Positions 10,620 through 47,272 are shown, numbered from the whole stretch's first letter. The stretch: 47,938 nt of DNA, filler included, from Catajapyx aquilonaris (GCA_000934665.2; 2 parts of 2 records of this genome joined end to end with filler, not necessarily neighbours in it), one strand, 5' to 3'. Program-made: numbers and translations. Notes: a model not told the origin generated them from the sequence alone.

Positions 10620-10788
10620 GGTGCTGGCAAATCCTGAGACTCCACCAAAGCTGGACTGGAGCATCTACAAGGCAAAAGTTGCCATCCCAGGGATGGTCGA
10701 TACCTTTCAGAAACAGTATGAGTCTTTGAAGATCCCCTATCCAGAAGACAAGGTTTCATCCCAGATTGATGCCCAGCAGAAGGAAGCA
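10620..10788 (+). CDS. ATPsynD: Mitochondrial ATP synthase subunit d, internal exon
   Basis: Acceptor ttacag|G. Encodes VLANPETPPKLDWSIYKAKVAIPGMVDTFQKQYESLKIPYPEDKVSSQIDAQQKEA, matching insect subunit d (VLANPE..P.IDW..YK...V.G.VD.FQKQYE.LK.PYP.DKVSSQ.D). Donor GTAAGC at 10789. Confidence 0.93.
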
Positions 10789-10807
10789 GTAAGCATTGTT
10801 ATAACTA

Positions 10808-11813
10808 CAGGGTGGACGGAAAGTTTCGGACCCCCCCAGGTTTTTTAACCCTACTTTTCACAGCGTCTTTTCACATCTTTTAAAAGTTCACAAGCAGTTC
10901 TAATGTACACTATCTTTTGAAGAATAATCTTGAGAACATCTGAGCACCTTTGCTCTGGCAATTCCATTAATAACTTCGCCTCTGTGACTCATCTAAACAT
11001 CCTATCTGTTTTGCGTTTATTTTGCTTGTTGCCTTGGAGGACCCCTGGTCATATTCTGCGTCAGATAATGTTTTTATGACCCTTTTCCATGAGTTCCCCT
11101 TCATGCAAATGTTGTGAACTCACTCCTGACCTTATTTTTCGCATTGGTCCATAACCTGGTCCAATAAAAATTTGAAAAGGAATGCATGAAATGGCGGACC
11201 CGGATGCATTACTTTTGAATTCTCACATTGGTACCATCACATTTGTCTCCATTTTTACTTTGTAATAATTTTTTGGTGCGAAAGGACGTGAACGAACGGA
11301 TGTGTCATGTTGATTAATTTACCAAGGTAGGACTGTTTACTGTCCTTTCCCACCAAAAAATTATTTTAAAGTAAAAATGGAGACAAATGTGATGGTACCA
11401 ACTCGAAAGTAATGCATCCGGGTCCGCCATTTAATGCATTCCTTTTCAAATTTTTATTGGACCAGGTTATGGACCAATGCGAAAAATAAGGTCAGGAGTG
11501 AGTTCACAACATTTGCATGAAGGGGAACTCATGGAAAAGGGTCATAAAAGCCTTATCTGACGCAGAATATGACCAGGGGTCCTCCAAGGCAACAAGCAAA
11601 ATAAACGCAAAACAGATAGGATGTTTAGATGAGTCACAGAGGCGAAGTTATTAATGGAATTGGGAGAGCGAAGGTGCTCAGATGTTCTCGAGATTATGCT
11701 TCAAAAGATAGTGTACATTAGAACTGCTTGTGGACTTTTAAAAGATGTGAAAAGACGCTGTGAAAAGTAGGGTTTAAAAACCTGGGGGGGTCCGAAACTT
11801 TCCGTCCACCCTG
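10808..11813. mobile_element. Tc1/mariner-type foldback MITE, near-perfect palindrome of about 1 kb
   Basis: TA|CAGGGTGGACGGAAAG ... CTTTCCGTCCACCCTG|TA. Arms are about 470 bp with few mismatches. Confidence 0.9.
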
Positions 11814-11873
11814 TATTTTTGCATCAGCAGGTATGAAGGTGCATTAGTGGGTGATGACTACTATTGGGGTAAT

Positions 11874-13408
11874 GGGGTCCTAGCCTTGGTCTGGGATTTG
11901 GGATTTTTGTTCATAAATAGCTAGCCCGTAGACACACATTCCATCACTCTGTTGCATCAAAATGACTTTACTGGATAAATTACGGAACATTTAAAAAGTG
12001 CCACCAAAATTTGTGGGAAAAACGGGGCGTGGCTTCTGAGCCGAGTGGTGCCAATTGAAGAGTACACTAAAATACCTGGTTGACTGCGAGAGATGAGGAA
12101 GTTGATTTTGAATTTACCGCAGACAAGACGGAAAACATTTGCATGGTGGCGGTAGGCCATTGAGATGGAGGAAGGGGACCTGCTGGGATCACTGCCGGGG
12201 AATCATATGCCTGAAGTGCATTGAGCGGCTTAGAGTAAAAACGCGCCTCGGGCCACCAACTTGTTTATACAGGGTGATTCTCTCGAATGGAAACCCAAAC
12301 ATTCCTCAATAACTTTTTAACTATGGTATGGTTCCCGATGAAAATTGACTTAGTACTTACCTTGTACCATGCCAAACAAGGTCCGACTAAAGAATATACC
12401 AAAAGTGGTCCCCTCCAGCATCCATGAATTTTTTAATGCGAGTCTGCATCTTTACCAAAGACTCCTGCCTACTGGCGGCGTGCATTGCCTCCATCTCCCG
12501 CCAGCCAAGCGCCGTAAAGGGGTTCACAACTAACTGACGGTAGCATACGAAACGAACGAAATGAAATAGTGGACCAATCAGAGCCCACTTGAGGATGACT
12601 AAAAGTGACTTTCACTTTTGGGCTCTGATTGGTCCACTATTTCATTTCATTCGTTTCGTATGCTACCGTCAGCTAGTTGTGAACCCCCTTACGGCGCTTG
12701 GCTGGCGGGAGATGGAGGCAATGCACGCCGCCAGTAGGCAGGAGTCTTCGGTAAAGATGCAGACTCGGAACATTAGAAAATTCATGGATGCTGGAGGGGA
12801 CCACTTTTGGTACATTCTTTAGTCGGACCTTGTTTGGCATGGTACAAGGTAAGTACAAGTCAATTTTCATCGGGAACCATACCATAGTTAAAAAGTTATT
12901 GAGGAATGTTTGGGTTTCCATTCGAGAGAATCACCCTGTACTATCTTCCACCTGTTGCTGCTGGACGTGCATCTGCTCCTCCCTGCTTTGTCAGTACCGT
13001 ACTGTCCGTACGTTGTGTACCTTCGGCATATCCGGCTGCCGTTCGTCTCGTCACATACCACATCTCGCAATAGAGCCAGGATTTGAGAAGGCTACCTCAA
13101 CCAACCTTCTGGACCCTCTGAACCAAGCTCTGCGAGGATCTGGGCCGGACATGCACTCACATGCACACACAGGCACCAGGAATAGGACGGCCGCTTACAA
13201 CAACGAACCATTTTACGACCATGCCGGGGCGCGTTCTGTAACATCATTCTTGCCTTCATTTCACTTTGCGTGAGGCAGCATTTCCTACCAAAAAAACACT
13301 AATAGCTCTGGAACTGAAGCTGATTTCTTAAAACTGAATACGCCAAAAATATCCCCCAAAAAAAGGGCGAATTTATGATGTAGTTTCTAAAATGTATGCT
13401 AGGACCGC
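11874..13408 (-). mobile_element. AT-TSD DNA transposon, copy 2 (interrupted by a mariner MITE)
   Basis: AT|GGGGTCCTAGCC ... GCTAGGACCGC|AT. 11880-12180 and 13220-13395 are reverse complements of parts of 8064-8737. Confidence 0.7.
12270..12938. mobile_element. Tc1/mariner-type foldback MITE
   Basis: TA|CAGGGTGATTCTCTCG ... CGAGAGAATCACCCTG|TA. Arms are about 315 bp with a loop of about 30 bp. Confidence 0.9.
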
Positions 13409-18035: not shown

Positions 18036-18173
18036 GCTCAGGCGATACAAGCATTTGTGTCATCTTCCAACAGTCGCATTAGTGCATATGAGAAGGAACT
18101 AGCCAACTGGAATGCCATGATTCCATTTGAGAAGATGACAATGGAAGACTACAAGGATGCTTTCCCCAAAGAA
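18036..18173 (+). CDS. ATPsynD: Mitochondrial ATP synthase subunit d, next internal exon
   Basis: Acceptor ttatag at 18035, phase 0 (compatible with the previous exon). Encodes AQAIQAFVSSSNSRISAYEKELANWNAMIPFEKMTMEDYKDAFPKE with the conserved P...MTMEDY.DAFP. Donor GTAAGT at 18174. Too short to appear in the ORF track. Confidence 0.93.
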
Positions 18174-20511: not shown

Positions 20512-21740
20512 TACTTCTCCCAGCAGTGGTCCAGGCTTATAATATGAGATAAAGGCATGTGATTAGTGGCATTTTTTCATTGGTGTTCCTCATACAAACC
20601 ACATGTGTGAGGGGACATTCAGAATCCAGTGCACAATCAGGAACTTCAGTAGAAAGAGTGAAAGCAGTCTTAAGAGAACTGCTCTTTGCACTTGGAATGT
20701 GTGAAGGATACTTTGGAAGAGAACTTCCCCTTTATAGTGTGCGTGAATACTCATGTGGAAAAGGTTGTTCTGAATTGTTCAGATACATGGGCAGACTTAT
20801 GCAGTTAACACAGTTTCCCCTGACGAAAGCCCTGCACAATGAAATTACTGTCAATTCAAGGAAAAGGACCTTTTTAGCAATAATCCCTGGAAGATTCGAT
20901 TTCTTTTTGCCATGTGTTCCCCCACCAGCCAGGAAGGTGAAATTCTAATGCAAAGTAAAGTACTGTAGTACAATAGATGGATGGGAAAATCAGAAAATCA
21001 CCCCCGCTCCAAAATCAGTGCCTTCCTATGCATGGGAAGGTGATGACGGGTAATCAAAAGCAGCATGTTTTCCTACTAAGGGACCAAGAAATGATGAAGG
21101 TGAGGTGAGGTGAAAAATAAATCGGCTATATTGGAGTAAAAATACAAGTATGGACGTATGCAGGAACCAGCCTTTCGAGTCTTGTTATAACTGAGAGTCT
21201 GCTGTAGCCGAGGCTGTTACATCTGGAATCAACTGTAGTAGTACAGTAAAACTTCCATAAGTCGAATCTCAATGGGACCGGGAAAAAACTTCGAGTTATA
21301 GAAGATTCGAGTTAGAGAAGTTTGGAATTTTTAAAGCACATAACTCCATAAGGAAGCCTACCTTTATATCCAGCAACAAAAGGTGTTCAAAACTTAGCAA
21401 TATATGTCACTATCACACTTACAATGTTCCTCGTTGTTTTGTTGCAAAGAAATCTCTGTTATGGACATTTGCCAACTCTTAGATTGGCTCTCACTTTTAA
21501 TAAAGGACCAGGTACAGATGGCATGAGTTATTACTGGTAGACGGACAGGAAATTGAGCCTTTCTGTACATGTGGCCTACTCTCGACCCTTCGGCTGGGAA
21601 ATGAGAAAAAAATTTCCGTACTCGCCAACATGAACTTGGACTTAGGGAGACTGAAAATGCATTGATATCCCATCATAAGGCCCTGCCTGCACTTCAAGTT
21701 ATAATTATTATTGTGGGGGTAGTGCTTCACCTTTCGGCGA

Positions 21741-21909
21741 GGCGAACCGGTTTACTCCCATGTAGCCGCTGGGCCTACGATAGACCGGCCTTATCTGATC
21801 CGTTGTCGGGCGCAGCCCAGGCCTTTTGGATCGGGTGGTCTACCTAAGGCGATGGCCTTGCTTAGGAAGCCTGGGTCAGGCCGATTTTTAGTCCCATGTA
21901 AACGTACTC
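21741..21909 (-). mobile_element. Truncated copy of the GAG..CTC MITE (lacks the SINE C insertion)
   Basis: Reverse complement of 39694-40160 without the SINE insertion. Confidence 0.8.
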
Positions 21910-21919
21910 ATTGAGAAGC

Positions 21920-22116
21920 GCCTGGGCCCATGGGCAGGATGACAGGAGGGGATGTGCAAGGTGCAGTGCATCTGACACTGTGGCCATTTTTAGTGAACTC
22001 CCCCGGGTGGTTTAGTCTTGTGGAAATACCACCCGAGACAAAGCCAGAGGTGACCCTGAACTCTGCACGAGATGAAGGGGGTGGCCCCGGGTTGGGATCG
22101 AACCCGGGACCTTAAC
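21920..22116 (-). mobile_element. tRNA-derived SINE family B, truncated copy
   Basis: Near-identical to 36050-36250. B box GGTTCGATCCC on the minus strand. Confidence 0.8.
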
Positions 22117-22739
22117 GTCCCTAAGTCGAAGTTCTCGATAAGTCGAAGAAAATGATGAGCTTGGTTGGTCACAATGTAAAATAATAGGAAATAAACTTCC
22201 CTAACTCGAAGTTCTCCATAACTCGAAGTGCAGGCAGGGCCTTACCATGGGATATCAATGCATTTTCAGTCTCCCTATGTCGAACTTCATGTTGGCGAGT
22301 ACGGAAAATTTTCTCGTATTCCAGCCGAAGGGTCGAGAGGAGGCAACATGCACAAAAAGACTCAATTTCCTGATCTCCGTCTACCAGACATACCGAAATA
22401 AGTGTTTGACTCGATTGTGACAATTGAATCCTTGAATCTAAGAGTAGGCAAATGTCCATAACGGAAATTCTTTGCAACAAAACAATGAGGAACATTGTAA
22501 GTGTGATACTGACAGATATTGTTAAGTTTTGAACACCTTTTGTCGTTGGATATAAAGGTAGGCGTCCTTATAGAGTTATGTGCGTAAAAAATTCCAAACT
22601 TCTCTAACTCGAATCTTCTATAACTCGAAGTTTTTTTCTGGTCCCATGGTGATTCGACTTATAGAAGTTTTACTGTATGTGCGATATTGAACACTTACAA
22701 GGGAATGACCAAGGTCGGTCACCTCTGATTTGATTGAAA

Positions 22740-23924: not shown

Positions 23925-24024
23925 NNNNNNNNNNNNNNNNNNNNNNNNNNNNNNNNNNNNNNNNNNNNTTAATTAATTAANNNNNNNNNNNNNNNNNNNN
24001 NNNNNNNNNNNNNNNNNNNNNNNN
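23925..24024. other. Assembly gap or linker: N44-TTAATTAATTAA-N44
   Basis: Exactly 100 nt, with a central 12-mer that places stop codons in all six frames. Confidence 0.9.
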
Positions 24025-24513
24025 GGTGCAATTGCCCGATTGCCCCCCCCCCCCTCCCCTGGATCCGCGCCTGATCCTAAGACTGCTAGTGCGATCACAT
24101 CGCGCATTCCATCATTTTGGTCCAGGCCACAGAACAAAACAATAAAACATGGGCACATTGGTGTCGCGGATGGAACAATACAAAGTTGGCCATTATTATT
24201 TTTATTGCTAATTTCATTGATGAAAATGAACGAAACACCTTTTGGTCTTGTGCAAAGGTGATGCCAATAATGAAATTGGGCTGACAAAAGTAAACAGTCT
24301 ATATAAATTACAACAACCAGCAAAACTGTATACTTATGTAACGAGACGTTCATACTTAAATCGGAGCGAAGGTTAATTACACTGAACAGGTATCGGAATT
24401 AAAACGATTTATAAATGCTTCATAATAATTATGATGTGGCAACATTGTGACACGTTCCTCTTTTGGCTTAGTGCAGATTTGGAAGGTAAGGATATTTTTG
24501 TACTTGGTGTAAG

Positions 24514-24959
24514 CAAGGAGCATATACTACATAAGAGGCGCAAACATTCGATTTTTACGTCTCTCTGTTTATAGGGCGTTGCCAAGGCTGGCGGCCATCT
24601 TGAAGTGTGTGGTGCGCCAACGAGGTATAAATAGGGTACAGGCAGGCCGTCAAGGTCCGCGGGGGTCCGCCATCTTTGATGGTTTGGGCTGCCATGGCAA
24701 TACACGGCAATAACAATTTACTTACCCATTCCAATATCGAATTCAAATTCGCGCGTGTTCTTGGCGTGTAGTTCCCATGGCCGCCAAAAATCATCAAAGA
24801 TGGCGGACCCAATTTTTGCCTGTACCCTATTTATACCTCGTTGGCGCACCACACACTTCAAGATGGCCGCCACCCTTGGCAATGCCCTATAAACAGAGAG
24901 ACGCGAACATCAAAGGCGCCGACAGAAGTTTGCGCCTCTTATGTAGTATATGCTCCCTG
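24514..24959. mobile_element. P-element-type foldback MITE with 7-bp TSD
   Basis: GTGTAAG|CAAGGAGCATATACTACAT ... ATGTAGTATATGCTCCCTG|GTGTAAG. Arms are about 180 bp. Confidence 0.82.
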
Positions 24960-25084
24960 GTGTAAGTTTAACCGCCTAATAGTGCCGTTTATAGGGGGTG
25001 TGGACGTTTAAAAAATAAACGTTTGCTATAAAAAATAATAATGAACGATGCTCCCATTTTGCGCAAAAGAAGTTAATGGAACCC

Positions 25085-29958: not shown

Positions 29959-30305
29959 TGTGTGTGTGTGAAGGGTTACTTCAAGACCAGGATAAAGTGG
30001 CCAAAAGTATTTGAACCCGATAGTACCATCACTTTGGGGGATGATAGAGGGGTTCCCGTGGGTCTCCGTTCCCGAGACACTGTACAGTGTACATACTCCC
30101 GATTATTCAGGCAAATGACTGCACGGGTGTCGCCGGATTATCGGAAAACACGGATAATCCGAAAAGAGTTCTAGATATTGTAAAAGTCAGATGTTCAGAG
30201 ATTTCATAATGAACTACTCTAAATACTGTATTCTGCTTTAACCCTTTGACGGCGGGGTTTTTCGGGTCCTTTTCTTCTTTTCTTGGCTAAAATTTGTACT
30301 GTATA

Positions 30306-30867
30306 CAGGGTGTAAATGAATTCAACCGACAAACTTCTAGGGGTGATAGAGGGGACCAAGACAAACATTTTTGACATAGGAAACCGTGTCCGGAAACGCC
30401 ATCTAGAGGGGGTTCATAGACGAGGAACGGATGCGCTCAGACGCTTCACGCGAGAGGCGCAAGTCGAGCGGTCTGTTTTGTTGATAGATGGCGCTCGGAT
30501 AGTAACCAACGATTCGATGTGCCACAACGTGGCAACAGCAGAGCCATCTAGCAACTAAAGTCCGCCTCCTAGGAGACTCGCGGATAGTCAGCAGCGGTTC
30601 TGTTGTTGCCAGGTTTTGGCGTATCGTGTTGTTGTTTACTTACTACGACGCGATACGCCATAACCTGGCAACAACTGCGCGCCATCTATCAACAAAACAG
30701 TCCGCTCGACTTGCGCCTCTCGCGTGACGCGTCTGAGCGCACCCGTTCCTCGTCTATGAACCCCCTCTAGATGGCGTTTCCGGACACGGTTTCCTATGTC
30801 AAAAATGTTTGTCTTGGTCCCCTCTATCACCCCTAGAAGTTTGTCGGTTGAATTCATTTACACCCTG
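30306..30867. mobile_element. Tc1/mariner-type foldback MITE
   Basis: TA|CAGGGTGTAAATGAATTC ... GAATTCATTTACACCCTG|TA. Arms are about 190 bp and nearly identical. Confidence 0.9.
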
Positions 30868-31051
30868 TATAGTAGGAGTGATATTAATGAAAAACAATAT
30901 GGTCCAATATTTATCATTTTAACTCGTGGTGGTCCTTTTGAATGTAAAATGAAGAAAAATTCATCTACAGGTTGTTCCAGTAAAATATTTAAAGCGCAAT
31001 AACTTTAAATGTAATGAAATTAATTTTTAATTTTAAATTCGCTACAAAATT

Positions 31052-31392: not shown

Positions 31393-32422
31393 TCGCTATA
31401 AAATTGTTACTGTGGTTACAAAATACGTAATACTAAAACACTGTACTATGAGAAATTCCTAAGTGTCCAGACTTACGGCACACCCTGTTCTGACGCCGCG
31501 GGAGGGGGTATGTTTAGCTCACGCTCGGAGGGGTCGCCTGCCTAACCGCCAATTTCCTTTACCGCCAAAAGTCCTGAGCGTCAATTGTCCTGACCGCCAA
31601 AAGTCCTGAGCGTCAATTGTCCTGACCGCCAAAAGTCCTAACCGCCAATTGTCCTAAGCGCCAAAAGTCCTGACCGCCAATTGTCCTGAGCGCCAAAACA
31701 GGCCTGCCAACTGATTCTATCTGAGACTGAGAATATTCAGAAAGCTGTGACTGCTTATGGAAAAGTCGTATAAGCTGCTACAGTCCCACTTTCTAACAAT
31801 GCCGCCATTTTGGATCCGGATCTAGCAACTTATTTTCTACGGATTGAGCCTAATAACAGCTTAGAGTAAACCCTTGCGACTTATTTGGCTGCGTCACAGC
31901 GGTGGGATCAGCAGGGGAAAGGAGGTTGGCAAAGCCACAATAACGTTCGTTGGCCTGCGGCGCCACAAGACGGACAGTAAATGTTGCGGATACAGAAACC
32001 CACAATAAGCGCCCAGCTCCGCTGTCGCTCCGCAAAAACTAAAAATATCACGCACGGGCGACGAACCGTGCCTGGCGGGGCTACAACAGATGCCAGTATT
32101 GTTGCGGTAACAGAAAGTCATACAGCATCACCAAGACAAAGGGCAACTCCATCCCTCACGTTGCCGCGTCACTCAAATATGCCCATATCAGCTATTATTA
32201 GCTTTAATCATAACCTGCTACATTCGGATCCAAAATGGCGAGCCAATTGCAGCATGGGGCCGAAAATAACACCTAGCTGCTTTATCCGTAAGCAGTTACA
32301 GCTTTCTGAATACGTTCAAAGGATCGTGATTCGTGAGGTCTTCCCACAGTTGGCACCCCTCTAAAATAACCGGTTTTGGAGCCCTGTTCTGTTTGGCGCT
32401 CAGGACAATTGGCGGTCAGGAC

Positions 32423-33386
32423 CAGCCCCCGGACACTTATACTACATTTCGCCTGCCGAGGAGTTTTGCAGCGGGTGCTCGCCTGAGAGCGCCATGAGAC
32501 ATTTCCCGGAGCAATTATGTGACGCCCCTACCGGACTAGGCTGAACTTTATAGGTACAAACAACGAGATAGAATAGAATGGAGGCCGTAAAGGTCGGACA
32601 TCTTTGAAGCCATTTGGGGCCATCGGGCGGCCATGACACTTCACGGCAAGAACTTTTAAATTGTAGTATTTCTAACCCTGTTCTCCTCTCCTGCCTCCTG
32701 GCGGGACTAGGAAGAAAAGTCAGTCTGGTGAAAGCAACGAGGTATGAATAGGGTTAGAGGCCGTAAAGGTCCGCCATCTTTGAAGCAATTGGCGGCCATG
32801 CCACTTCACTGCAAAAGAGCATTGGTGGTATACAGAAGTAGACAGTAGCGCCATGCGGCCAGAGGGAAAACCAGCCATGAGTTTACCACCTCACGCGTGT
32901 TATTCCGTGAAGTGTCATGGCTGCTCAATTGCATCAAAGATGGCGGGACTTTACGGCCTCTAACCCTAATTTATACCTCGTTGCTTTCACCAGACTGCCA
33001 TTTATTCTCAGCCCCGCCAGGAGGCAGGAGTGTAGACAGAGGAGAACAGGGTTAGAAATGGACAATTTCAAATGAGCGCATGTTCTTGCCGTGAAGTGGC
33101 ATGGCCGCCAAAGATCACGTGACCTTTACGGCCTCTATCCTATTCTATCTCGTTGGGTACAAAAGGGAAGCGCTACATTGGGGGACCCAACAGGGGCGCC
33201 GGCGGCCATGTTGGGCCCACATGTAGCGCTTCCCTTTTGTACCTATAAAGTCCAGCATGGTCCGGTAGGGGCGCCACATAATTGCTCCGGGAAATGTCTC
33301 ATGGCGCTCTCAGGTGAGCACCCGCTGCAAAACCCCTCGGCAGGGGGTGGGTGGGAGTGACCTAACCTGAGTCTTCTATAACCATG
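32423..33386 (+). mobile_element. CA..TG element with 8-bp TSD, asymmetric ends and an internal inverted repeat, copy 1
   Basis: GTCAGGAC|CAGCCCCCGGACACTTATACTACAT ... TTCTATAACCATG|GTCAGGAC. Homologous to 41906-42283. Confidence 0.75.
32561..33155. mobile_element. P-element-type foldback MITE with 8-bp TSD
   Basis: GGTACAAA|CAACGAGATAGAATAG ... CTATTCTATCTCGTTG|GGTACAAA. It is absent from the paralogous site at about 42045-42055. Confidence 0.88.
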
Positions 33387-33656
33387 GTCAGGACTTATGG
33401 CGGCAACGGAAATTGGCGGTCAGGACTTTTGGCGGCAAAGGAAAATGTGTGTTGGCGGTAAATGAAATTGGCGGTCAGGCAGGCGCTCCCGCTCGGAGGT
33501 GGAAAATTTTATTATCACACGTCACGGTAGTTGAGCCGCCTTCCACGAGGTGGGAGGAGCAGTTTGAGCCTCAAACTGCTCCCGTCTAAACTCTAGCGCG
33601 CCCAGTTCAAAAACCAGCAGGGCATCATCCGATGTCCCTAGGCCTCAAAGGGTTAA

Positions 33657-34413
33657 AGGAAGGGTTCAGTGATTTTGCATGTTGAGCTTCAAAAATCGAG
33701 CAGGACTCTCTGATTCTGAATATCCGGTCCGTTTTGGTGGCAAATGCACCATAAGCGTAAAATTTCAAGTCAGAGTGGATTTTTTTGAAAATCAGCGCCG
33801 AACACGGGTTCCCTCTAGCCACAAGAGTGGAAGCTTCGATGCAGCGGTCGAAGCTTCCACTCTTGTGGCTAGAGGGAACCCGTGTCCCGTGAGAAGATGG
33901 CAGCCCCCAGAGACAAGCCGCATTCAAGCCAGATGGTTGGGTTTTCGACCCGAGTGGAACCTGCCCCGAGTGCCAAGGGCCATGGAAAGGCGGCGGGGAG
34001 GGCAGACGGAGGGCGAGAGGGAGAGACAGGCGCGAGCACGGGCGCGAGTGACCAAACAAAGCAGCCGACTACGAGTTATGCCTACGGGATACTTCCATAC
34101 CAGTTCGAGCCCTACCCCCACCTTCTTCCCTCTCACTTCCTTGTTCCAAATCCAGCCGCAAGCAGTTTCCTAGTTCAAAAATGGGCTTCGAGACTAAGCC
34201 AATCTCATTGGCCACGGTGGTGGCAGGTTACCGGAATTTCCGCGGGAGGCGCTGGCTGTACGCTTACCGTATCGAATATAGTAGCGGATATGGACTTTCA
34301 CCAAACGGCATTTGTTTACGCGGCGTCATATTCCAAAACTGACCACATTTTTGGAATCAGGGAGTCTTCCTTGATCTCTGAAGCCCAACATGCAAAATCA
34401 CTGATCCCTTCCT
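33657..34413. mobile_element. TTAA-TSD element with purine terminus (Kolobok-like) and an internal perfect hairpin at 33802-33885
   Basis: TTAA|AGGAAGGGTTCAGTGATTTTGCATGTTG ... CAACATGCAAAATCACTGATCCCTTCCT|TTAA. Confidence 0.8.
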
Positions 34414-34671
34414 TTAAGTAAGGTTCAATCAAAATAATGAAACTTCCCACATACCGTATTTTTAGTTTGTCTTCTGGAAAAAGTTTCTTGGTTTGCAAGA
34501 CTTACTGACGTTTTTTCGGACTTTTATTTATTTTCCTTTGTTTTGGCGAGCCACGGATAATCCACACCCGGATAATCGAGAGTGCACTGTAATGAGCATC
34601 AAATAAAGAGTGCGCTATACCAGCTTTTATGTCGCGGATACACTCTATGGCAATTCCATTGCCTGATACAT

Positions 34672-35734
34672 CTAACAAGCAAAGTAACTTTTCTTACCCT
34701 CCTGGATTTTGATAATTTTTATAATTTAAATTCTGCTTGGCCTATATTCTATAGTGTTGAGAAAACATCACCTCCGCTGCTAAATTCCACGTTAGCAGGG
34801 TGAAAATACAGCCTCAAGGCAATGTTCCGAAAGCCACAACACCAGCGTTCGGTCGCGAGGCGCTCGTCCCGGCTACCCCGGTCGCGGTCGCCTTTCACCG
34901 CGTCTGTAGCTCTCTCCGGTGCCACGAAGGAGAAGGGTCATCTCGCACGCTTTGAAGTTGAAGGCGATTATAATAATGGAGAGCCAGGACAGGGGGCATA
35001 ATACTACATATGAGGCGAAAACATTCGATTCGCCTGTCTCTGTTTGATGGGGCCAACGGTGGCGGCCATTTTGAAGCGATGCCAACGAGGTGTAAATAGG
35101 GTACAGGTAGGCCAAAGCTTCGCCATCTTTGATTGTTTTGGCGGCGGCCATGGCACTTCACGGCAAGAACACGGGCGAATTTGAATATTTTTGCCGTACT
35201 TACGGAATTAATACGTAGAAAAGTGCATTAAAGGAGCTCATACGGCAAAAAGATTCAAATTCAGCCGCCAAAACCATCAAAGATAGCAGACCTTTGGCCT
35301 GCCTGTACCCTATTTACACCTCGTTGGCCTCTCTTCAAAATGGCCGCCACCGTTGGCCCCATCGAACAGAGACAGGCGAATCGAATGTTTGCGCCTCATA
35401 TGTACTGTAGTATTATGCCCCCTGTCCTGGCTCTCCATTATTATAACCGCCTTCGACTTCAAAGCGTGCGAGATGACCCTTCTCCTTCGTGGCACCGGAG
35501 AGAGCTACAGACGCGGTGAAAGGCGACCGCGACCGGGCAGCCGGGACGAGCGCCTCGCGACCGAATGCTGGTGTTGTGGCTTACGGAACATCGCCATTAG
35601 GCTGGATTTTCACCCTGCTAACGTGGAATTTAGCAGCGGAGGTGATGTTTTCCCAACACTATAGGCCAAGCAGAATTTAAATTATCAAAATTATCAAAAT
35701 CCAGGAGGGTAAGAAAAGTTACTTTGCTTGTTAG
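34672..35734. mobile_element. Concentric palindrome of about 1.06 kb built around a P-type MITE (34990-35424)
   Basis: Arms are about 480 bp. The inner CAGGGGGCATAATACTACAT ends are homologous to the 24514 element. No TSD is visible at the outer ends. Confidence 0.85.
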
Positions 35735-35941
35735 TGGTTTTGTATACACTGTACGCTCTAGTGGAGGGTGACATGTTTATTACTGTTTATGTTAGTCTTA
35801 ATGAACCAATTTGAGCTCTCTCTCTCTCTCTCAAAAGCTAACACTAATAAACAATTTGGTGTGAGAGGCATATCACAGTGTTATTTCGATATATCTTTTT
35901 CTCTTCAAGTGACAGGACTTATTTCTTTGTGTTACATTTAT

Positions 35942-37195: not shown

Positions 37196-38878
37196 ATTCA
37201 AAATTACAGGGGGGTGGCGCTACTAAACGGGGTCTACAAGATTTGGGCCATGATTATAGAGGCGAGGATAAGGGCATGGGCAGAGGGGGAGGGCATATTA
37301 CATGAGGGACAGGCTGGTTTTCGGAGAGGGAGGAGCACATGTGACAACATATTTATATTAAACGCACTGGTACAACACAGGCTTAGGAGGAACAGGGGGA
37401 AAATGTACGCGATGTTCGTGGACCTCAAATCCGCGTTCGACGAAGTGGATAGAATCAAGCTTATGGCAAAACTGAGGAACCTAGGAGTAAAGGGCAAAGT
37501 GTGGAGGCTACTATGCAAAATGTACGAAGAGAGTATTAATACAATAGAAGGCGGGAAAGATTTTGGACAATGACTGGAGTGAGGCAGGGGTGCCCACTGA
37601 GCCCATTGTTATTCATAATACAGTATATGTAAATGATTGGTTGAACATGTTGCAGGAGGAAAATTCAGGGGGNNNNNNNNNNNNNNNNNNNNNNNNNNNN
37701 NNNNNNNNNNNNNNNNNNNNNNNNNNNNNNNNNNNNNNNNNNNNNNNNNNNNNNNNNNNNNNNNNNNNNNNNNNNNNNNNNNNNNNNNNNNNNNNNNNNN
37801 NNNNNNNNNNNNNNNNNNNNNNNNNNNNNNNNNNNNNNNNNNNNNNNNNNNNNNNNNNNNNNNNNNNNNNNNNNNNNNGGGGGGGGGGGGATACAGGAAC
37901 ATATCAAAGCGCAAAGACAGAAAGCATGGAGAGGGTTGCACAGGGTCAGAAGGATATGCAGGCAACCAAAAATTGAACAGTGGGGTTTGGTAAAGGTGTT
38001 GTATGGTAGCATGGTGAGAACGATCTTACTGCAGGGAGCCGAGGTGTGGGCGTGGAAGGTGGGAAGAGCAATGGAGTGTGTACAGTTGGGGTTCCTCAAG
38101 AGGTGGCTCGGAGTTTCCCAGAATACTCCGGGGTACATTGTACTGACGGAGACAGGAATGATGGCGGTGGAAGTGGCGGCATTAGAAAGGGCAGTTAGGT
38201 GGATTATGAAGGTGGAAAGGTTAGGGGAAGACAGACTGTTGCGAAGGATATGGGAAGAGATGAAGAAGGAAAGGGAGGGGGCTAGTAAAAATACCTGGTG
38301 GGAAGATGTGAGGAAGAAGGAACGTGAATGGGCGTGGAGCATGAGAGGGAGGAGAGAATTGACAACACGACTAACTGGCCCGACTACAGATTTGTAAAGA
38401 TAGAGAGAGAAGAAGACCGATATTTGGACAGAGAAAATATAAAATTTTTGAAGGTGTTGGCTAAACTCTGATGTGGGACACTGTGCAGGGCTAGCTGGTC
38501 GTGGCTGTCAGAAACGGAGAGGAACTGTATGGGGAGGGGGAGGAGAATATGGGGCACATTGTGAGCGACTGCAGGGTAATGAAGGAGGAGAGGAGGAAAT
38601 GGATACCGGCGGTGGAGGAGATGGAGGATGAAGAGGTGTATCGCCTTGTAAAGATAATGTAAGAAAAAGGGGTGCTCTGTGTAGGTATCTACGTAATGGT
38701 GAAAAAGAGAAGAAATACAATTTTGGAGAGACAGGGGAGGGGGTGAGTGAAAATGGAATTATGTAAATGTAAATGTAAATGTAAATAATGTCAACGTGTG
38801 AAGAAGGAGGAGAGTCGGCCACGCGGCATGTGCTGCAGGCCGACAAAGTCTAAATAAAGCAAAAACAAACAAACAAAC
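37196..38878 (+). mobile_element. 5'-truncated non-LTR retrotransposon (LINE; RTE/RTE-X-like RT), frameshifted and spanning a gap
   Basis: NYRGVALL, QAGFRRGRSTCDNIF, FVDLKSAFD, TGVRQGCPLSPLLF and LGVSQNTPGYIVLTETG motifs. AATAAA followed by a (CAAA)n tail. The clade assignment is tentative. Confidence 0.9.
37673..37878. other. Assembly gap (N run between poly-G tracts)
   Basis: About 206 N inside the LINE. Confidence 0.95.
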
Positions 38879-39693
38879 TTAACGTTCTTGATATAAGGAA
38901 ATTATGGGTATGATATGGAACTGGTAAAAAAAGTGGCACTGTTCATGACAACGTGTTCCCTGACTCCTTTCGCAGTGGGTACCTTGAAATTCAGTCAGCA
39001 GGCGACTGACCCCAGGACCCAACAAACGAATCCCTGGGAACCTGAAAGAGACATAGGTCACAAACTAGTGACCTTATGACCTCCTTCATGTTACCAATCG
39101 TCTCAGCGACCTCTAATTATGCGGAAATGACACCAACATTGCCATGGAGAGGCAATTTGGAATTTTCCAAATATATATGACCTTTTTTCCAAAACGGTCG
39201 CCATTTTGACCCCACAAGGTCAAGGGTCAGGGTACTGCTTGTCACATTGATCGCCTTAGTCTATGGAATGTTTGTGCAAGGTGGCTTGCTTTCTGTAAGA
39301 ATTTGCAGCATTTTATGCCGTTTTTTCAAGTGTACCGCTCAGACTAGCACGATGGCACCGCGCTAAGAGTACTATCAAATATTTTCAGTTTTTTAACAGA
39401 TGATCGCACAAATATGCCAGTGATATCGTTGTAAAGGTGAGAATGCGAGGAAGCCTTTTCCGTCCTACACATTTTGTCGGGTCTGCTGTGCGGAACGGAT
39501 TATTTTCATGTTTTCAAAAGTGCAAGGAGAAAATTCAAACTTGGCGGGCGTTTTCACGGTGACCTTGACTTGCAGATGATATGATGACCTGATAGTCACG
39601 TTGTGTATCCACTTGTAAACATTTTAAGAGGAATCCGAGCAAAATCGGACGAGTAGTTTCGATTTTATAGCCAATTTCAAGGCGAGTGTCAAT

Positions 39694-40203
39694 GAGTAAG
39701 TTTACATGGGACTAAAAATCGGCCTGGCCCAGGCTTCCTAAGCAAGGCCATCGCCTTAGGTAGACCACCCGATCCAAAAGGCCTGGGCTGCGCCCGACAA
39801 CGGCTCAGATAATAATTCATACCCCGTTATCAGCCTATCGGCTCTTTAGGGGGGAAGTTTTTTTTGTTTTGCCTGGAACTCTTTGCTTTCATTTTACTGC
39901 GCTTTTTGGGATAGGATAGGGACGGAAGGAAGTGGCTGTGGCCTATTAATTACGGAAGCAACTCCGGAATTTTCCTGGAAGGACCGTGGGAAACCACCGA
40001 AAACCACGGTCAGAGTTGCCGGCCCCGGGATTCGAACCCAGGACCTCCCGATTAGCAGTCGGACGCCTTATCCACTATGCCAACCTGCTTCGGTGCAACG
40101 GCTCAGATAAGGCCGGTCTATCGTAGGCCCAGCGGCTACATGGGAGTAAACCGGTTCGCCTAGCATAGGCTAGGCCGATTTTTAGTCCCATGTAAACGCA
40201 CTC
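39694..40203 (+). mobile_element. MITE with GAG..CTC ends and AAT TSD (PIF/Harbinger-related, possibly Pangu-like)
   Basis: AAT|GAGTAAGTTTACATGGGACTAAAAATCGGCCT ... AGGCCGATTTTTAGTCCCATGTAAACGCACTC|AAT. Confidence 0.8.
39813..40095 (-). mobile_element. tRNA-derived SINE family C inserted into the MITE
   Basis: Perfect 15-bp TSD CAACGGCTCAGATAA. Minus-strand B box GGTTCGAATCCC. The uninterrupted site is visible in the 21741-21909 copy. Confidence 0.9.
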
Positions 40204-40639: not shown

Positions 40640-41905
40640 ACAAGCATCGCTTAGCGCTTTCAATATGGGCGGCCGACATAATCCTTAACCTACCCCCAAG
40701 TTAGTGTCCGTACCTTTCCATGTCGAAAGTACATAATAAATGAATAATATTACATACCGTACTGTAGGAGACAGATTAAGTGTCACCCGTCGGGATTTTT
40801 TGTGACAATATTTTTTGTTGATTCGGAAAAGCAAGCCGGCAGTTCAGCAGCTTTGTCTGCTAGCTATTTGAAGGTCAAGGGCAGAGAAGGACAGCAGCAG
40901 GAGGCATCTGAAGCGAATGGCAAGAACATTCATTTACTGTCAGGTGGCAAAAAGTGGTAGTGCCTCTTTCCTGCTAGACATTATTTGTTTGCTCAAGAGT
41001 TGCGAGAATGCTACGTGAGGGGCTGTCAAGTCAGAACATACGTAACACCTGCTTGCATATTTGCCTATACGTGACACGTAGGCGCTTGTCAGAATGACGT
41101 GAGATACTTCACTCACGTTAGGGCATATGTTGCTCATGCAGAGATGCAGTGAAAATTCAGCGCGCATAAAAATATGTACAGATCATGGCCTCAGGACAAG
41201 AGGTTTCTATCTGAATAATTCACGCTCAGCTCCCTAAAAACCGCATCACCTCAGCAGAAACAATACAGGTATTTCCCAGCATGCTCTTACTATCCGTTTA
41301 TTTAATATAGACCCCTGTGTTTGACTAGAAACAACTTCCATACACATGATCCAATATATAATGCTATATCAGTATCGTTCGAAAGCTTCTTTAAATCCAC
41401 GTTACATATACGGTATGCGAGTTGTTTTCCCATCATAAGTGGGTCATTTTTTATCGCAAGAAGAAGGCGGAAAGGTGTCATTTTTTAACTAGTTGGCGAC
41501 GTTACGCCGCAAAATGAATTTTTATGACACTTCTCGGAGGTCAAAGAATTCCCCCCTCCCCCCTGTGAACCATGGATAGTGCAAATTTTTGTCTATCTAA
41601 TGTTACCGTATGTAAGTTCGAAACTTAAAAAATCGCAATTTGTGTAATCATACTGAAGTTAATTGCACACATCTGTTATTTGGGTCGTTTCTCATCCGAA
41701 TTACTTCGCGAATATATCGACGGCAAGCCAGAAATGTGCACCGTGCTCTATTACACTATAATAATAATATTTAAAATTATTTAAAAGTATCGCTGTCTAT
41801 TCCCGTCGGAAATCTGGCTGGGTACTTGCCTATTAAACTTAATAAACCAATATATGGCGCTCAAAAGGGGAAAATATCGTCAACAAGAAATTACATGGTC
41901 CAAAA

Positions 41906-42283
41906 CAACCCCCGGACACTTATACTACATTCTGATGTTATCGCATGCCGAGGCATTTTGCCGGGGGTGCTCACCTGAGAGCGTCAGGAGACATTTCAGA
42001 GCCCAGGTTAGTGGCGACCCTACCGGACTACGCTGAACTTTATAGGTACAAATGGGAAGCGCTGCACGCGGGCCCAAAATGGCTGCCGGCGACCGTGTTG
42101 GGTCCCCCAGTGTAGCGCTTCCCTTTTGTACCTATAAAGTTCAGATGTTCAGCGTAGTCCGGTAGGGTCGCCACTTACCTGGGCTCTGACATGTCTCATG
42201 GCGCTCTCAAGTGAGCACCTTCTACAAAACGCCCCAGCAGGGGGTGTGTGGGAGTGACCAGACCTGAGTATTCTTAGATCGTG
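41906..42283 (+). mobile_element. CA..TG element with 8-bp TSD, asymmetric ends and an internal inverted repeat, copy 2
   Basis: GTCCAAAA|CAACCCCCGGACACTTATACTACAT ... TTCTTAGATCGTG|GTCCAAAA. Confidence 0.8.
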
Positions 42284-42489
42284 GTCCAAAAAAACATGGT
42301 GTAGCCTAGTGATTTGTGATGTCAGTAGTGCGCGGTCACGATACGTCGGAAGTGCCGATAGATAGGCTGCGTTGCTTATCATCCAGCCCGCCAGCTCAAA
42401 TTGCATTTCCGCCACTCGGGAAAGTCAGCACTAGGTTTCCTTACTGTTAGTTAAGCAGTAAGTACCACGAGAATGGTGTACGCCGCACC

Positions 42490-45400
42490 CCGGGGAAGCT
42501 AGCATGAATATGCGGCATGAGTTCCGTCAAATCTGCAGTGCTACCAACTTATCATTTACTTCAGCGATTACACAGCGCAACAATCGGCGTGTTACTCGGA
42601 AACCACTATGTAGATCATGTCAGTAGGACACAAAGTAGCTGGGAAACGCCCGGGATTTCTCTCCCAAAATGTGCAGGGGGTCAGGGTGACCAAAAATCCA
42701 AAATATTCAAAATATTGACCTTTTTTTGGCCTATTTCAAGGTCGGGCAAGCACTGTAAGTTTCGGATTTTGTTTTTGCTGGTATTAGGTGTTTTCTGGGG
42801 CTAGTCTGAAGACACTAGGGTGTTTAAAGTCAATCTTTTATAGAAACTGTAGGTTTTCGAGGGTCCTTTTTATGGGAAAAATTCCGTTTTTTGGTACTTT
42901 TTCGTCTATTTTTGCAGAACAGTGTAAGGGCTTTTTTTTTATTAAAAACGTGTAGCGTAATGGGCTCTTTAGAGACCCTACAATCAAGGAATAATAGTAG
43001 AACTTTCCTATGCAACCCTAGTACGCGTGTGCAAAAGCCTAATCTTGGGTAAAATCGCGTTTTTTCGCATTTTTGGTGATTTGACTTTTTTCAACATTTA
43101 AAACCAAATATTCCTCGGCTTTAAAATAAATGAATTCTTCCAAGGAACACTATCCAAGTGTCACTCGCCGATTTTCATGAAATTTGGTACATTGGTAGCC
43201 CACCCCAAGGGATGAAAAACGCACCTACGGTTACCTGCTCAAAATGATCCTGTGACCCTTTTTTGAGGTTGCCAAATTTCAACTCGTAAAATTCAATCAT
43301 CACCGATTTTCTTGAAATTCGGTGCATTGGTAGCCCACCTCAAGGGATGAAAATCGCACCTAAAGTTACCTGCTCAAAATGATCCTGCGACTCATTTTTG
43401 AGGGGGCCAAAGGTCAGCTCCTAAAATTCCGGCATCACCGATTTTCATGAAATTCGATGCATTGGTTGGATTTATAAAGAATGACATTTTCTCAGGACAT
43501 ATTTATGTCAATAAAGAAGTGTTTGACACAAACAAAATGATGTCAAATACTGGACAAAACGTACTTGTGAAACAAAAAACAAGAGAGTCATTCCATGTCA
43601 AATCATCAAATAAATAATAAGTTTTGGATTTTGATGTCATGGATTTGGCTAATTTTTGGGAGACCTGTTCCTTCCCATCTGACATGGACAAAAATATATT
43701 TTAAATTTTTTTTTCCTGTCATCGGTTTTTGAATTTTGGAATGTTCAATAATTGCAAAACCTCCCAAAAACCGCTCACCGACAAACCTTTAAATATGATT
43801 TCCCAGAGAACCGTTCCAGATACAAGCTGGCAATGATCTCATTTTAAAGCCAATGAATAGGGCTTTCATATGATATATATGTAACATGTATTGTTATTCA
43901 GGACACATACGTTTTTCGGGACTTTTCAAAATTTCTTTTTACATTTTCCAAAAATAGGTATGATTTAAAATGTTCCTAAAATTCACACATATTGGTACAC
44001 ATCTACTGAAGGTCTAGTGAAAATTTCAGTGTGGGATCTCTATGCTGTCATACGAAAATGGAATTTCATTACATGTGAGGAAAATAATGATAGTTGGGTC
44101 ATTCCATCTCAATTCTGTTTCTGAAAAGTTGTGGCTTGACCCCTTCCGATGTAACTGAAAAAATCAAGTATGTAGGTATCCACACCTAATTGCGAAATCC
44201 TCAATTTGAGGCCGCTGGAGTCAAATCTCACGGAGATATAAAAATGGAAAGTTCAACAATGACGTCCATGTCAATTTTTAACTGTTCAGACTGTTCTCCC
44301 AACACCAACACGTTACATATCAAATGGAAGGTAATATAGAGAGGAATAATATGGTTGGAAAATATTCGACCTCACTCGAAAAACGACGTCGAAAAAAATT
44401 CGCACATTTATGTCCAAATCACCCTATATTCCCGATAGCCATAACTCATAACATTATGATTTTAACAAAGTGATATTTAGGATACAGGGCAATAACCTTT
44501 GCCTAAATGCACATGCATAACCTCATTGTGATAGGTCAAGCAGGGTTAGAAATAAAAAATCCGAAAATATGAATTACCTCATTTTGCCTATTTTCGAGCT
44601 GAAATTTCTCGAGGTATGCCTGGACCGATTTTGACATTTGGTATGTCAATCTGTTTCTTGGATCATCCCCTATTCAGAAATGCATAAACCATTCTTTACC
44701 CATGAGGGATAATTGATCAGTGAACTTCCAAACGTATGGGTGCATGATTCCGTGCACCTCCTTATGCACCCATACGTTTGAAAATTCGCTGATCAGTTAT
44801 CCCTGATGGGTAAAGAATGGTTTATGCATTTCTGAATAGGGGATGCTCCAAAAAATAGATTGACATGGACGTCATTGTTGAACTTTCCATTTTTATATCT
44901 CCGTGAGATTTGACTCCAGCGGCCTCAAATTGAGGATTTCGCAATTAGGTGTGGATACCTACATACTTGATTTTTTCAGTTACATCGGAAGGGGTCAAGC
45001 CACAACTTTTCAGAAACAGAATTGAGATGGAATGACCCAATTATCATTATTTTCCTCACATGTAATGAAATTCCATAGACGTCAGTAGATGTGTACCAAT
45101 ATGTGTGAATTTTAGGAACATTTTAAATCATACCTATTTTTGGAAAATGTAAAAAGAAATTTTGAAAGGTCCCGAAAAACGTATGTGTCCTGAATAACAA
45201 TACATGTTACATATATATCATATGAAAGCCCTATTCATTGGCTTTAAAATGAGATCATTGCCAGCTTGTATCTGGAACGGTTCTCTGGGAAATCATATTT
45301 AAAGGTTTGTCGGTGAGCGGTTTTTGGGAGGTTTTGCAATTATTGAACATTCCAAAATTCAAAAACCGATGACAGGAAAAAAAAAATTTAAAATATATTT

Positions 45401-47272
45401 TTGTCCATGTCAGATGGGAAGGAACTGGTCTCCCAAAAATTAGCCAAATCCATGACATCAAAATCCAAAACTTATTATTTATTTGATGATTTGACATGGA
45501 ATGACTCTCTTGTTTTTTGTTTCACAGGTACGTTTTGTCCAGTATTTGACATCATTTTGTTTGTGTCAAACACTTCTTTATTGACATAAATATGTCCTGA
45601 GAAAATGTCATTCTTTATAAATCCAACCAATGCACCGAATTTCATGAAAATCGGTGATGCCGGAATTTTAGGAGCTGACCTTTGGCCCCCTCAAAAATGA
45701 GTCGCAGGATCATTTTGAGCAGGTAACTTTAGGTGCGTTTTTCATCCCTTGAGGTGGGCTACCAATGCACCGAATTTCAAGAAAATCGGTGATGATTGAA
45801 TTTCACGAGTTGAAATCTGGCAACCTCAAAAAAGGGTCACAGGATCATTTTGAGCAGGTAACCTTAGGTGCGTTTTTCATCCCTTGGGGTGGGCTACCAA
45901 TGCACCAAATTTCATGAAAATCGGCGAGTGACACTTGGATAGTGTTCCTTGTTAGTCTAACAAACTGTCAGGGACCCCCATAGTATGGAAAAAGACTACG
46001 ATTTCCATAAGCAACCCATGTACGCGTACGCGTACAAAAAAAACAATACACGCGTTCATGGGTTGCTTATGGAAATCGTAGTCTTTTTCCATACTATGGG
46101 GGTCCCTGACAGTTTGTTAGACTAAAAAGAATTCATTTATTTTAAAGCCGTTTAAATGTTGAAAAAAGTCAAATCACCAAAAATGCGAAAAAAACGCGAT
46201 TTTACCCAAGATTAGGCTTTTGCACACGCGTACTAGGGTTGCATATGAAAGTTCTACTATTATTCCTTGATTGTAGGGTCTCTCAAGAGCCCATTACGCT
46301 ACACGTTTTTTATTTTAAAAAAAGCCCTTACACTGTTCTCCAAAAATTGACGAAAAAGTATCAAAAAACGAAAGTTTTTCCATAAAAAGGACCCTGGAAA
46401 ACCTACAGTTTCTGTAAAAGATTGACTTTAAACACCATAGTGGCTTCAGACTAGACCCAGGTAACACCTAATGCCAGCAAAAACAAAATCCGAAACTTAC
46501 AGTGGTTGCCAGACCTGGAAATAGGCCAATAAACGTCAATATTTTGAATTTGTCGGATTTTTGGTCACCCTGACCCCCTGCACATTTTGGGAGAGAAATC
46601 CCGGGCGTTTCCCAGCTACTTTGGGTCCTACTAACATGATTTACATAGTGGTTTCCGAGTAACACACCGATTTTTTTTTTGTTGCGCTGTGTTATTTCAG
46701 TAATCGCAACCTCTAGAGCGGCCATATTTGGCGGCCGTGACCTGGTGACCTTCCACCAGGATTTCCTAAAAATCGGCGAGGGTGCAAAACTCCTTACCTA
46801 ACCGGGGTCACCTCGAACTCTTGTTCAAGAAGACCAGCAGTAATAAAAACATGTCATTCACGGTCTTCGCAACTTCCAGAGTGGCCATATTTGGCAAGCG
46901 TGACCTGGTGACCTCCGACCACATTTTCTTAAAAATTGGCGAGGGTGCAAAACTCCTGACCCAGCCGGGGTCACCTCGAACTCTTCAGGCCCATGTTCAA
47001 GAAGGCCTCTGATAAAAACAGGCTTCTCGGTCATTCTCGGTCTGGTCTTCTTGAACAAGGGCTGTAGAGTTCGAGGTGACCCTGGCAGGGTCAGGAGTTT
47101 TGCACCCTCGCCAATTTTTAGGAATCCTGGTGGAAGGTCACCAGGTCACGGCTGCCAAATATGGCCGCTCTAGAGGTTGCGATTACTGAAATAATCACTC
47201 GAGTAAATGATAAGTTGGTAGCACTACAGATTTGACGGAACTCATGCCGCATATTCATGCTAGCTTCCCCGG
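42490..47272. mobile_element. Giant multi-shell foldback palindrome (about 4.8 kb)
   Basis: 42490-42560 pairs with 47201-47272, 42570-43140 with 46126-46690, and 43141-44275 with 44857-45951. Extra hairpins at 44644-44866, 45952-46125 and 46692-47194. Tandem repeat of about 134 bp at 43165-43465, mirrored in the right arm. Confidence 0.92.

Follow-up and report, generated by a model that had tools for sequence, protein, structure and literature searches.

Concentric transposon-like layers with mirrored junctions free of direct target-site duplications in a 1,063-bp palindrome of Catajapyx aquilonaris

Architecture of the palindrome

We analysed a stretch of 47,938 nt, filler included, from Catajapyx aquilonaris (GCA_000934665.2), in which two parts of two records of this genome, not necessarily neighbours in it, are joined with filler; this whole stretch is referred to here as the window, and all positions are counted from its first letter. 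Our focus is a 1,063-bp palindrome (34672-35734) whose contiguous inverted-repeat segments measure 75, 130, 132 and 141 nt and are 93-99% complementary; as a single DNA strand, it is predicted to fold into one long hairpin (dG -596.6 kcal/mol). Three concentric layers make up the palindrome: a 244-bp core, a surrounding shell with arms of 93/98 bp (shell 2) and an outer shell with arms of 318/310 bp.

The left arm of the outer shell (34672-34989, 318 bp) mirrors its right arm (35425-35734, 310 bp) with 299 matches, 11 substitutions and 2 insertions or deletions (indels; 96.5% identity). The left arm of shell 2 (34990-35082, 93 bp) has the terminus CAGGGGGCATAATACTACAT, carries a GGCGGCCATTTTGAAG motif ~72 bp in and is homologous to 24514-24617; its right arm (35327-35424, 98 bp) differs by 4 substitutions over 93 sites (95.7% identity) and one 5-bp indel. 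The core (35083-35326) has CAACGAG/CTCGTTG ends and two arms (35083-35145 and 35264-35326; 90.5% identity, 6 substitutions over 63 sites) around an asymmetric centre (35146-35263), and a 26-bp module, GGCCATGGCACTTCACGGCAAGAAC, is present on its left side only. The layer centres (35203, 35207 and 35204.5) agree to within 4 bp, and across this palindrome and two related composites described below, the layers are concentric to within 4, 6 and 1 bp. An earlier description drawn from the sequence alone (the sequence-only reading) had proposed these layers, with an outer mirror shell of about 320 bp, and every position and structure that it named was found.

Palindromes are hard to assemble, and the window contains runs of N (at 6640, 23925-23968, 23981-24024 and 37673-37878), both of which would suit a fold-back chimera that arose during draft assembly or cloning. 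None of these runs lies within 34672-35734, the core centre is asymmetric, and the arms are separated by 21 substitutions and 3 indels in total, so the palindrome is not a trivial fold-back artefact. Moreover, self-inverted palindromes of varied divergence account for 24 of the 67 alignments in a self-comparison of the window, and the related composites carry clean target-site duplications (TSDs). We therefore consider an artefact highly improbable.

Target-site duplications at core-type and shell 2 ends

The core terminus CAACGAG occurs nine times in the window, and eight of these occurrences make four inverted pairs (24618/24843, 32561/33155, 32735/32983 and 35083/35326). Homology between copies begins and ends exactly at the termini (e.g. 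35083-35326 vs. 32983-32735, and 34990-35409 vs. 24959-24523), and because it breaks exactly there, the shells are separable modules. In the window, neither the outer shell nor the 81-bp spacer described below was found a second time, and the 1,063-bp unit had no paralogous empty site (7-base words, E<=1).

Two composites show these termini at the edges of true insertions. The first (24514-24959) is a second copy of shell 2 plus core, flanked by the direct repeat GTGTAAG (24507-24513 and 24960-24966); its TSD is 7 bp long, and extends to 8 bp (GGTGTAAG) when the final G of the element is assigned to the target. The second (32561-33155) consists of an inner core (32735-32983) within a mirrored 81-bp spacer, bounded by core-type outer ends, and is flanked by an 8-bp TSD, GGTACAAA (32553-32560 and 33156-33163), which is present as a single 8-mer at an uninterrupted paralogous site (42045-42052). 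The sequence-only reading had taken both end types to be true mobile ends at these two places, and the TSDs (a 7-bp repeat in the first case, an 8/8 match with an empty paralogous site in the second) bear this out. Since TSDs flank both composites, both end types are working transposon termini, and both composites moved whole after nesting.

The second composite lies in the left arm only of a larger palindrome, host H1 (32452-33344), the arms of which (32452-32560 and 33236-33344) share 94.5% identity. On the right-hand side of the insert, an 88-bp hairpin (33156-33243) represents the residual host centre and is bounded by the TSD and its mirror image; the insert thus sits off-centre, 40-47 bp left of the centre of the host, with an exact 8-bp TSD. 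An uninterrupted paralogue of the host, H2 (41946-42239), provides the empty site: 32414-32560 aligns to 41897-42052 and 33156-33389 to 42045-42286, with an 8-bp overlap. An intermediate with the insert in one arm only, which the sequence-only reading had envisaged, is therefore present in the window, and we regard H1 with its insert as the stage before symmetrisation, that is, before one arm is copied onto the other around the insert.

The two copies of this host palindrome family, measured to their outer limits (41912-42280 and 32425-33376), have non-mirrored ends in common, and the left end, GGACACTTATACTACAT, resembles the shell 2 terminus. Both copies are flanked by long direct repeats starting GGTC (TGGTCCAAAA.AA; GGTCAGGAC), which is unusual for an element with terminal inverted repeats (TIRs).

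Mirrored flanks at the nested junctions

We compared the flanks of each element directly, as expected of a TSD, and as reverse complements of each other. All four nested boundaries lack a direct TSD (2/8 each in the direct 8-mer comparison) and have mirrored flanks: the mirrored 8-mers and 20-mers match at 8/8 and 20/20 positions for the core at 24618 (24618-24843, inside 24514-24959), 8/8 and 18/20 for the core at 32735, 6/8 and 18/20 for the core at 35083, and 8/8 and 20/20 for shell 2 at 34990. The true insertion at 32561 gives the opposite picture (8/8 direct vs. 2/8 and 6/20 mirrored). Three of the four nested junctions are mirrored perfectly over 14-29 bp. The proposal that the CAACGAG end recurs as an inner shell with mirrored flanks at 24618, 32735 and 35083, and that the shell 2 end does so at 34990, is accordingly upheld. 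One premise of that proposal, that ordinary nested insertion leaves unrelated flanks, fails where the host is itself a palindrome.

The outermost ends, which read c-TA-ACAAGC...GCTTGT-TA-g, behave differently from both classes (3/8 direct, 3/8 mirrored, and 4/20 in the mirrored 20-mer). The claim that they lack a TSD stands for a duplication of 7 or 8 bp, which is absent outside the arms, but not for a TA-type duplication, which is possible given the TA on both sides. As TA is its own reverse complement, TA flanks cannot separate a TA-type insertion from a mirrored flank, and it would in any case be expected in ~1/16 of mirrored ends. The TA-flanked elements in the window have CAGGGTG and CAGT ends, which the terminus ACAAGC does not resemble.

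Mirrored flanks could also arise with no copying of arms, if an element inserted exactly at the centre of its host through a preference for symmetric or cruciform targets, with subsequent loss of the TSD through mutation or the deletion of a small residual hairpin. Palindromic target motifs are reported for P-superfamily elements in part of a Galileo study (PMC4168063), and loss of the 88-bp hairpin of H1 would leave just such mirrored flanks. Against this route, none of the four nested junctions keeps a trace of the direct 8-mer, and perfect mirroring over 14-29 bp at three of them would rarely be expected from imprecise deletion. Ordinary insertions into palindromes in this window also sit off-centre. 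Besides the composite in H1, a 503-bp palindrome (P2, 46692-47194) is found only in the right arm of a 4.8-kb palindrome, with an imperfect duplication (TTA on the left, TAA on the right) and an empty site at 42567-42570 that reads TAA, and a 367-bp insert (44276-44642) is found only in the left arm of the same palindrome, with an exact 8-bp repeat, ATGTCAAT. Because these three ordinary insertions into palindromic hosts are off-centre, exact and scar-free centring needs a separate process, and we consider centred insertion improbable.

The 4.8-kb host (42490-47272) is a multi-part palindrome with arms 80-95% identical and outer ends without an obvious TSD. A 182-bp palindrome (45948-46129) also lies only in its right arm, with no clear TSD.

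Kind of element and shared motifs

[quoted passage not shown] All have inverted termini; their sizes are 226-595 bp, with 1,063 bp for the full nest; the TSD is of fixed length in the core type (8 bp) and the shell 2 type (7 bp), with only the ambiguous TA for the outermost shell; and in 48 kb there are four copies of the core type, two of shell 2 and one of the outer shell. When 157 translations of open reading frames (ORFs) from the window were compared with Pfam at curated cut-offs, only an ATP5H exon and RVT_1 passed; neither lies in the elements, and no transposase was detected. Similarly, a set of 20 ORF translations, 14 of them drawn from the three composites and H1, contained none that reached a Pfam curated cut-off, and an ORF within the right arm of the palindrome had no match in a protein database search. 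A scan of the whole window against RNA families at the gathering threshold returned only a tRNA-like match. Four matches to microRNA (miRNA) models from an E-value scan of 32300-35800 were rejected, all being well below gathering scores, and were treated as generic hairpin resemblance. The arms contain no tandem sub-repeats detected by Tandem Repeats Finder other than a 9-bp unit repeated 2.4 times.

Two motifs recur at comparable depths in the core and shell 2. GCCATYTTKR, in the form GCCATYTTGA in both layers, has 17 sites in the window (1.5 expected), and GGCNGCCATG has nine (0.27 expected); they sit 40-77 bp inside each core and shell 2 terminus and may be binding sites for a transposase. 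GCCATYTT is also found in other, otherwise unrelated palindromes of the window (14887, 20154, 31804/32230, 42074 and others). This spread hints at a wider group of elements possibly served by one DNA-binding protein.

The core (CAACGAG) and the other terminus type (CAGGGGGCAT) both begin CA-purine-N-G. Elements of the hAT superfamily have termini of the form pyrimidine-A-purine-N-G and 8-bp TSDs. The ends CAACG, CAGGG and CAAGG fit this pattern; of the TSDs, one is 8 bp and that of shell 2 may be 7 bp, and a transposase for comparison is absent from the window. Duplications of 7 or 8 bp would fit the P superfamily and hAT equally, and the termini appear to fit hAT at least as well. The label 'P-type' given to the palindrome in the sequence-only reading is thus unsupported, as it rested on TSD length, which is not diagnostic, and the window offers no transposase. 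A search for the core terminus in a prokaryote genome collection gave no matches; four prokaryote loci that matched a degenerate form of the terminus pattern were rejected as chance, with no similarity beyond the pattern itself.

The common plan of the core and shell 2 (a CA-purine-N-G start followed by the GCCATYTTGA/GGCNGCCATG motif 40-77 bp in) is what would be seen if the nest were built from the top down, as a long-TIR element of Galileo or Foldback kind with arms of reiterated, diverged end modules. The inner ends would then be internal, and hence without TSDs, and shorter elements would arise when an inner module served as the alternative terminus. In the 32561-33155 composite, the outer ends are closest to that composite's own inner core (71-79%, vs. 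64-71% with other cores), which also favours this origin, and tandem and internal TIR extension is documented for Galileo in the portions of two studies available to us (PMC3573991, PMC4168063). On the other hand, the arms lack tandem sub-repeats apart from the short 9-bp array, the core and shell 2 have little in common beyond short motifs, nothing else in the window matches either the outer shell or the spacer of the 32561 composite, and no transposase or coding remnant was found among the 157 ORF translations; a process that first reiterated the modules symmetrically would still be needed. We consider this origin unlikely; if the nest were such a fixed family with layered TIRs, it would be a matter of ordinary repeat annotation.

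Divergence between arms and between copies

Arm identity is higher in the outermost layers than in the inner cores. In the focal palindrome, it falls from 96.5% in the outer shell (11/310 substitutions/sites) and 95.7% in shell 2 (4/93) to 90.5% in the core (6/63); in the 24514-24959 composite, it is 94.2% in shell 2 (6/103) and 89.4% in the core (9/85); and in the 32561-33155 composite, it is 95.8% in the core-type outer ends (3/71), 88.8% in the spacer (9/80) and 89.0% in the inner core (9/82). Pooled over the three, the inner cores differ between arms at 24/230 sites and the outermost shells at 20/484 (10.4% vs. 4.1%, p=0.002, Fisher's test). Within 34672-35734 alone, the core and the outer layers differ at 6/63 vs. 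15/403 sites (p=0.05), and shell 2 and the outer shell are alike (4/93 vs. 11/310, p=0.76). Dating of the layers from arm identity is therefore suggestive only.

Copy-specific variants are common to both arms of a copy. Arm identity within copies is 89-96% when substitutions only are counted, and copies agree with one another at 64-82% (core) and 67-76% (shell 2) with gap columns in the denominator, so that the two sets of figures are different measures. On the gap-inclusive measure, within-copy identity is 77% for the core at 24618, 71% for the outer ends at 32561, 87% for the core at 32735, 90% for the core at 35083, and 84% and 91% for the two copies of shell 2. Compared like for like, co-variation of the arms is partly shown, with only shell 2 and the cores at 32735 and 35083 displaying it clearly.

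In each of the four core copies, an ACGCG-type sequence follows GAAC in just one of the two arms. Because the cores keep this one-sided, ancestral centre while their flanks mirror perfectly, the flank would have been copied and not the whole element. A one-step fold-back of the entire palindrome about the core centre was considered and is disfavoured, the core centre being asymmetric and the core arms more diverged than the outer layers.

The good preservation of the outermost arms (96.5%) also invites the view, the strong form of the sequence-only reading, that the nest grew purely outward, each layer being ordinary neighbouring DNA mirrored across a hairpin element, so that no layer would have to be a transposon, with the outermost shell as the newest. 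In keeping with this, the outermost ends show no 7/8-bp TSD (3/8 direct), the outer shell carries no shared subterminal motif and has no second copy in the window, and fold-back copying from long-stem hairpins near breaks is demonstrated in yeast in the part of a study available to us (PMC7467729). But no step in age is visible between shell 2 and the outer shell (p=0.76, as above), shell 2 and the core-type outer ends are working termini with TSDs elsewhere, ends of a kind that random flanking sequence would not provide, and TA lies on either side of the outer shell, TA-flanked palindromic elements being numerous in the window. We consider outward growth of this kind unlikely.

Equally tentative is the idea that hairpin MITEs act as seeds. 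In the course of repair or replication, a folded single strand would prime mirror-image copying of its neighbour, a single transposon end copied in this manner would become a two-ended mobile palindrome, and the process would repeat outward. We hold this to be a minority possibility; if true, it would explain why many unrelated whole-length palindromes share only their terminal few bases, and the 320-bp shell on the outside would be the latest addition, still without mobility.

Nesting followed by copying of arms

We favour an explanation in which an inverted-repeat host receives a hairpin element, the flanks of the insert are then rendered symmetric by templated copying from one arm to the other, and the resulting composite moves as a unit; we put the probability of this at about one half. 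Templated symmetrisation of the arms is the most economical route to perfectly mirrored junctions without TSDs. Under this explanation, the nest would comprise a 244-bp core, of a family with 8-bp TSDs, then a ~435-bp element with different termini (7/8-bp TSDs), and then the 1,063-bp palindrome, which may itself be mobile.

The proposed cycle has four steps. First, a trans-acting transposase would cut at the termini of a layer and paste the element elsewhere, a relocation that the TSDs and the empty site record. Second, a hairpin element would land in one arm of a larger inverted-repeat element, as seen once in the 32561-33155 insert in H1. Third, one arm would be copied onto the other around the insert, probably either by arm-to-arm conversion or, while a break is repaired or DNA is replicated, by template switching or intrastrand fold-back priming; the host centre would be lost and the direct TSD would become a mirrored pair, so that arm, TSD, insert, TSD and rest of host would be converted into arm, TSD, insert, mirror of TSD and mirror of arm. 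Finally, the composite transposes whole on its outermost working termini, as the TSDs flanking both composites show. Repetition of the cycle would add further layers. The ~320-bp shell on the outside would then be a TA-type element that served as host in the last cycle, or else ordinary flanking sequence newly copied by fold-back. We infer that both shell 2 and the spacer shell are former hosts, each of which had its own centre.

The arm-copying interpretation in the sequence-only reading thus holds in part. The mirrored junctions without TSDs, the variants shared between arms, the gradient of divergence and the one-arm intermediate speak for it, and some of its claims are unsupported. In particular, since shell 2 and the core-type outer ends have working termini, each is better seen as a host transposon's arm than as what that reading called a captured flank; outward capture of non-transposon flanking sequence would be possible only for the outermost 320-bp shell.

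Several observations weigh against nesting with arm copying. Neither shell 2 nor the outer shell was found without an insert in the window, which leaves them only putative former hosts. There are only about three independent nesting events, and the evidence all comes from one 48-kb window of a draft assembly containing N runs. The outer shell has neither the subterminal motif nor a 7/8-bp TSD, and the same subterminal motifs in the core and shell 2 may equally fit a top-down origin. On the gap-inclusive measure, the core at 24618 (77% within vs. 64-82% between copies) and the outer ends at 32561 (71% vs. 64-79%) show no within-copy excess, and the mirrored spacer of the 32561 composite (88.8%) is no better kept than its inner core (89.0%). 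The identity gradient could reflect selection on working termini or a long-standing asymmetry of the arms in the core family. Finally, the outer ends at 32561 resemble the inner core of the same composite more than they do other cores, which would also fit duplication of an end module within one element.

Relation to known systems

The arms of Drosophila Foldback (FB) elements consist of tandem sub-repeats, and their TSDs are 9 bp. Like FB, the nest is palindromic over nearly its whole length and has little or no coding capacity; unlike FB, it shows neither tandem sub-repeat arms (the 9-bp unit repeated 2.4 times being all that was detected) nor a 9-bp TSD, its TSDs being 7-8 bp. Nested insertions of one MITE in another have been described for plant and mosquito MITEs. 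The likeness lies in small, non-autonomous TIR elements inside one another, the ordinary case of which is represented here by 32561-33155 in H1 with its TSD. The difference is that ordinary nesting leaves a direct TSD and occurs at any position, whereas all four nested junctions here are centred, mirrored and free of TSDs.

The sequence-only reading had compared the palindrome with Galileo, a P-superfamily element of Drosophila, and the comparison is apt. In the available portions of the two studies, Galileo TIRs are described as extending by tandem expansion and by recruitment of internal sequence (PMC3573991, PMC4168063), and a secondary transposable element inserted in one TIR is described as having been transferred to the other (PMC4168063). 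Galileo and the nest thus have in common long, dynamic inverted arms, 7-bp TSDs and TIR extension by a secondary element. As far as those portions go, Galileo differs in being a family that is autonomous and has a THAP transposase and TIRs with internal repeats, the nest being non-coding and without tandem sub-repeats; in the nest, moreover, the inserted unit occurs once at the exact centre and not once per arm, and there are two to three iterated levels, each with its own terminus type.

Precedents for the copying itself come from other settings. Template switching homogenises and expands inverted repeats with imperfect arms (PMC13100816), and fold-back inversions arise via single-stranded hairpins that prime mirror-image copying of adjacent sequence (PMC7467729); in the parts of these reports at hand, the known cases are chromosomal rearrangements or short promoter inverted repeats in yeast, and not layered mobile elements. 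An Anopheles P-MITE paper, in its available part, proposes gap repair from ectopic templates and an advantage of stable secondary structure, and does not describe nests there. No description of centred, scar-less, TSD-less and iterated MITE nests was found in the literature searched, which leaves out most subscription journals. We therefore place the nest, as a variant, within a known category, long-TIR or foldback MITEs with TIR extension, and not in a category of its own.

If arm copying is real and recurrent, it would be a simple way for new miniature transposon families to originate and grow longer. It would complement the usual model of internal deletion from an autonomous element, tie the evolution of transposons to fold-back repair pathways known from yeast and cancer genomes, and explain the origin of concentric working termini, by which a single locus could be mobilised in units of several sizes. 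Small RNAs and chromosome fragility are further potential consequences of long perfect hairpins of this kind.

Genomic setting

By its sequence, the window is of eukaryotic, arthropod-like character. It is rich in whole-length palindromic repeats, and many of its palindromic elements are TA-flanked. It contains two exons of a gene for mitochondrial ATP synthase subunit d (ATP5H; 10618-10785 and 18039-18173, + strand), with insect proteins as best matches (60-75% identity); the species' own protein did not appear among the hits. The exons are 7.2 kb of intron apart, and this intron contains several whole-length palindromic elements, one of which (10803-11818) begins ~18 bp past an exon. A reverse-transcriptase fragment (37196-37570, + strand; Pfam RVT_1, E=1e-14) lies ~100 bp upstream of the 206-base N run at 37673-37878 and has no close relatives in the protein database at E<=1e-10. 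The tRNA-like match is a tRNA-Ser(GCT)-like sequence (40017-40088, - strand; Rfam, 39.7 bits), at which ARAGORN also calls a single tRNA-Ser gene. Diverged copies of it lie at 21737-21881 and 39680-39812, one of them inside the centre of a palindrome at 21242-22677, and the repeat is probably a tRNA-derived short interspersed nuclear element (SINE).

Close to the focal palindrome, a perfect hairpin with 38-nt arms and an 8-nt loop (33802-33885) lies inside a ~765-bp unit bounded by 85-bp inverted repeats (33653-33737/34333-34417), and resembles miRNA precursor models only below threshold. Three long palindromes elsewhere in the window (10803-11818, 12268-12940 and 30302-30871) all have a TA followed by a CAGGGTG terminus, and their mirrored bodies are otherwise unrelated.

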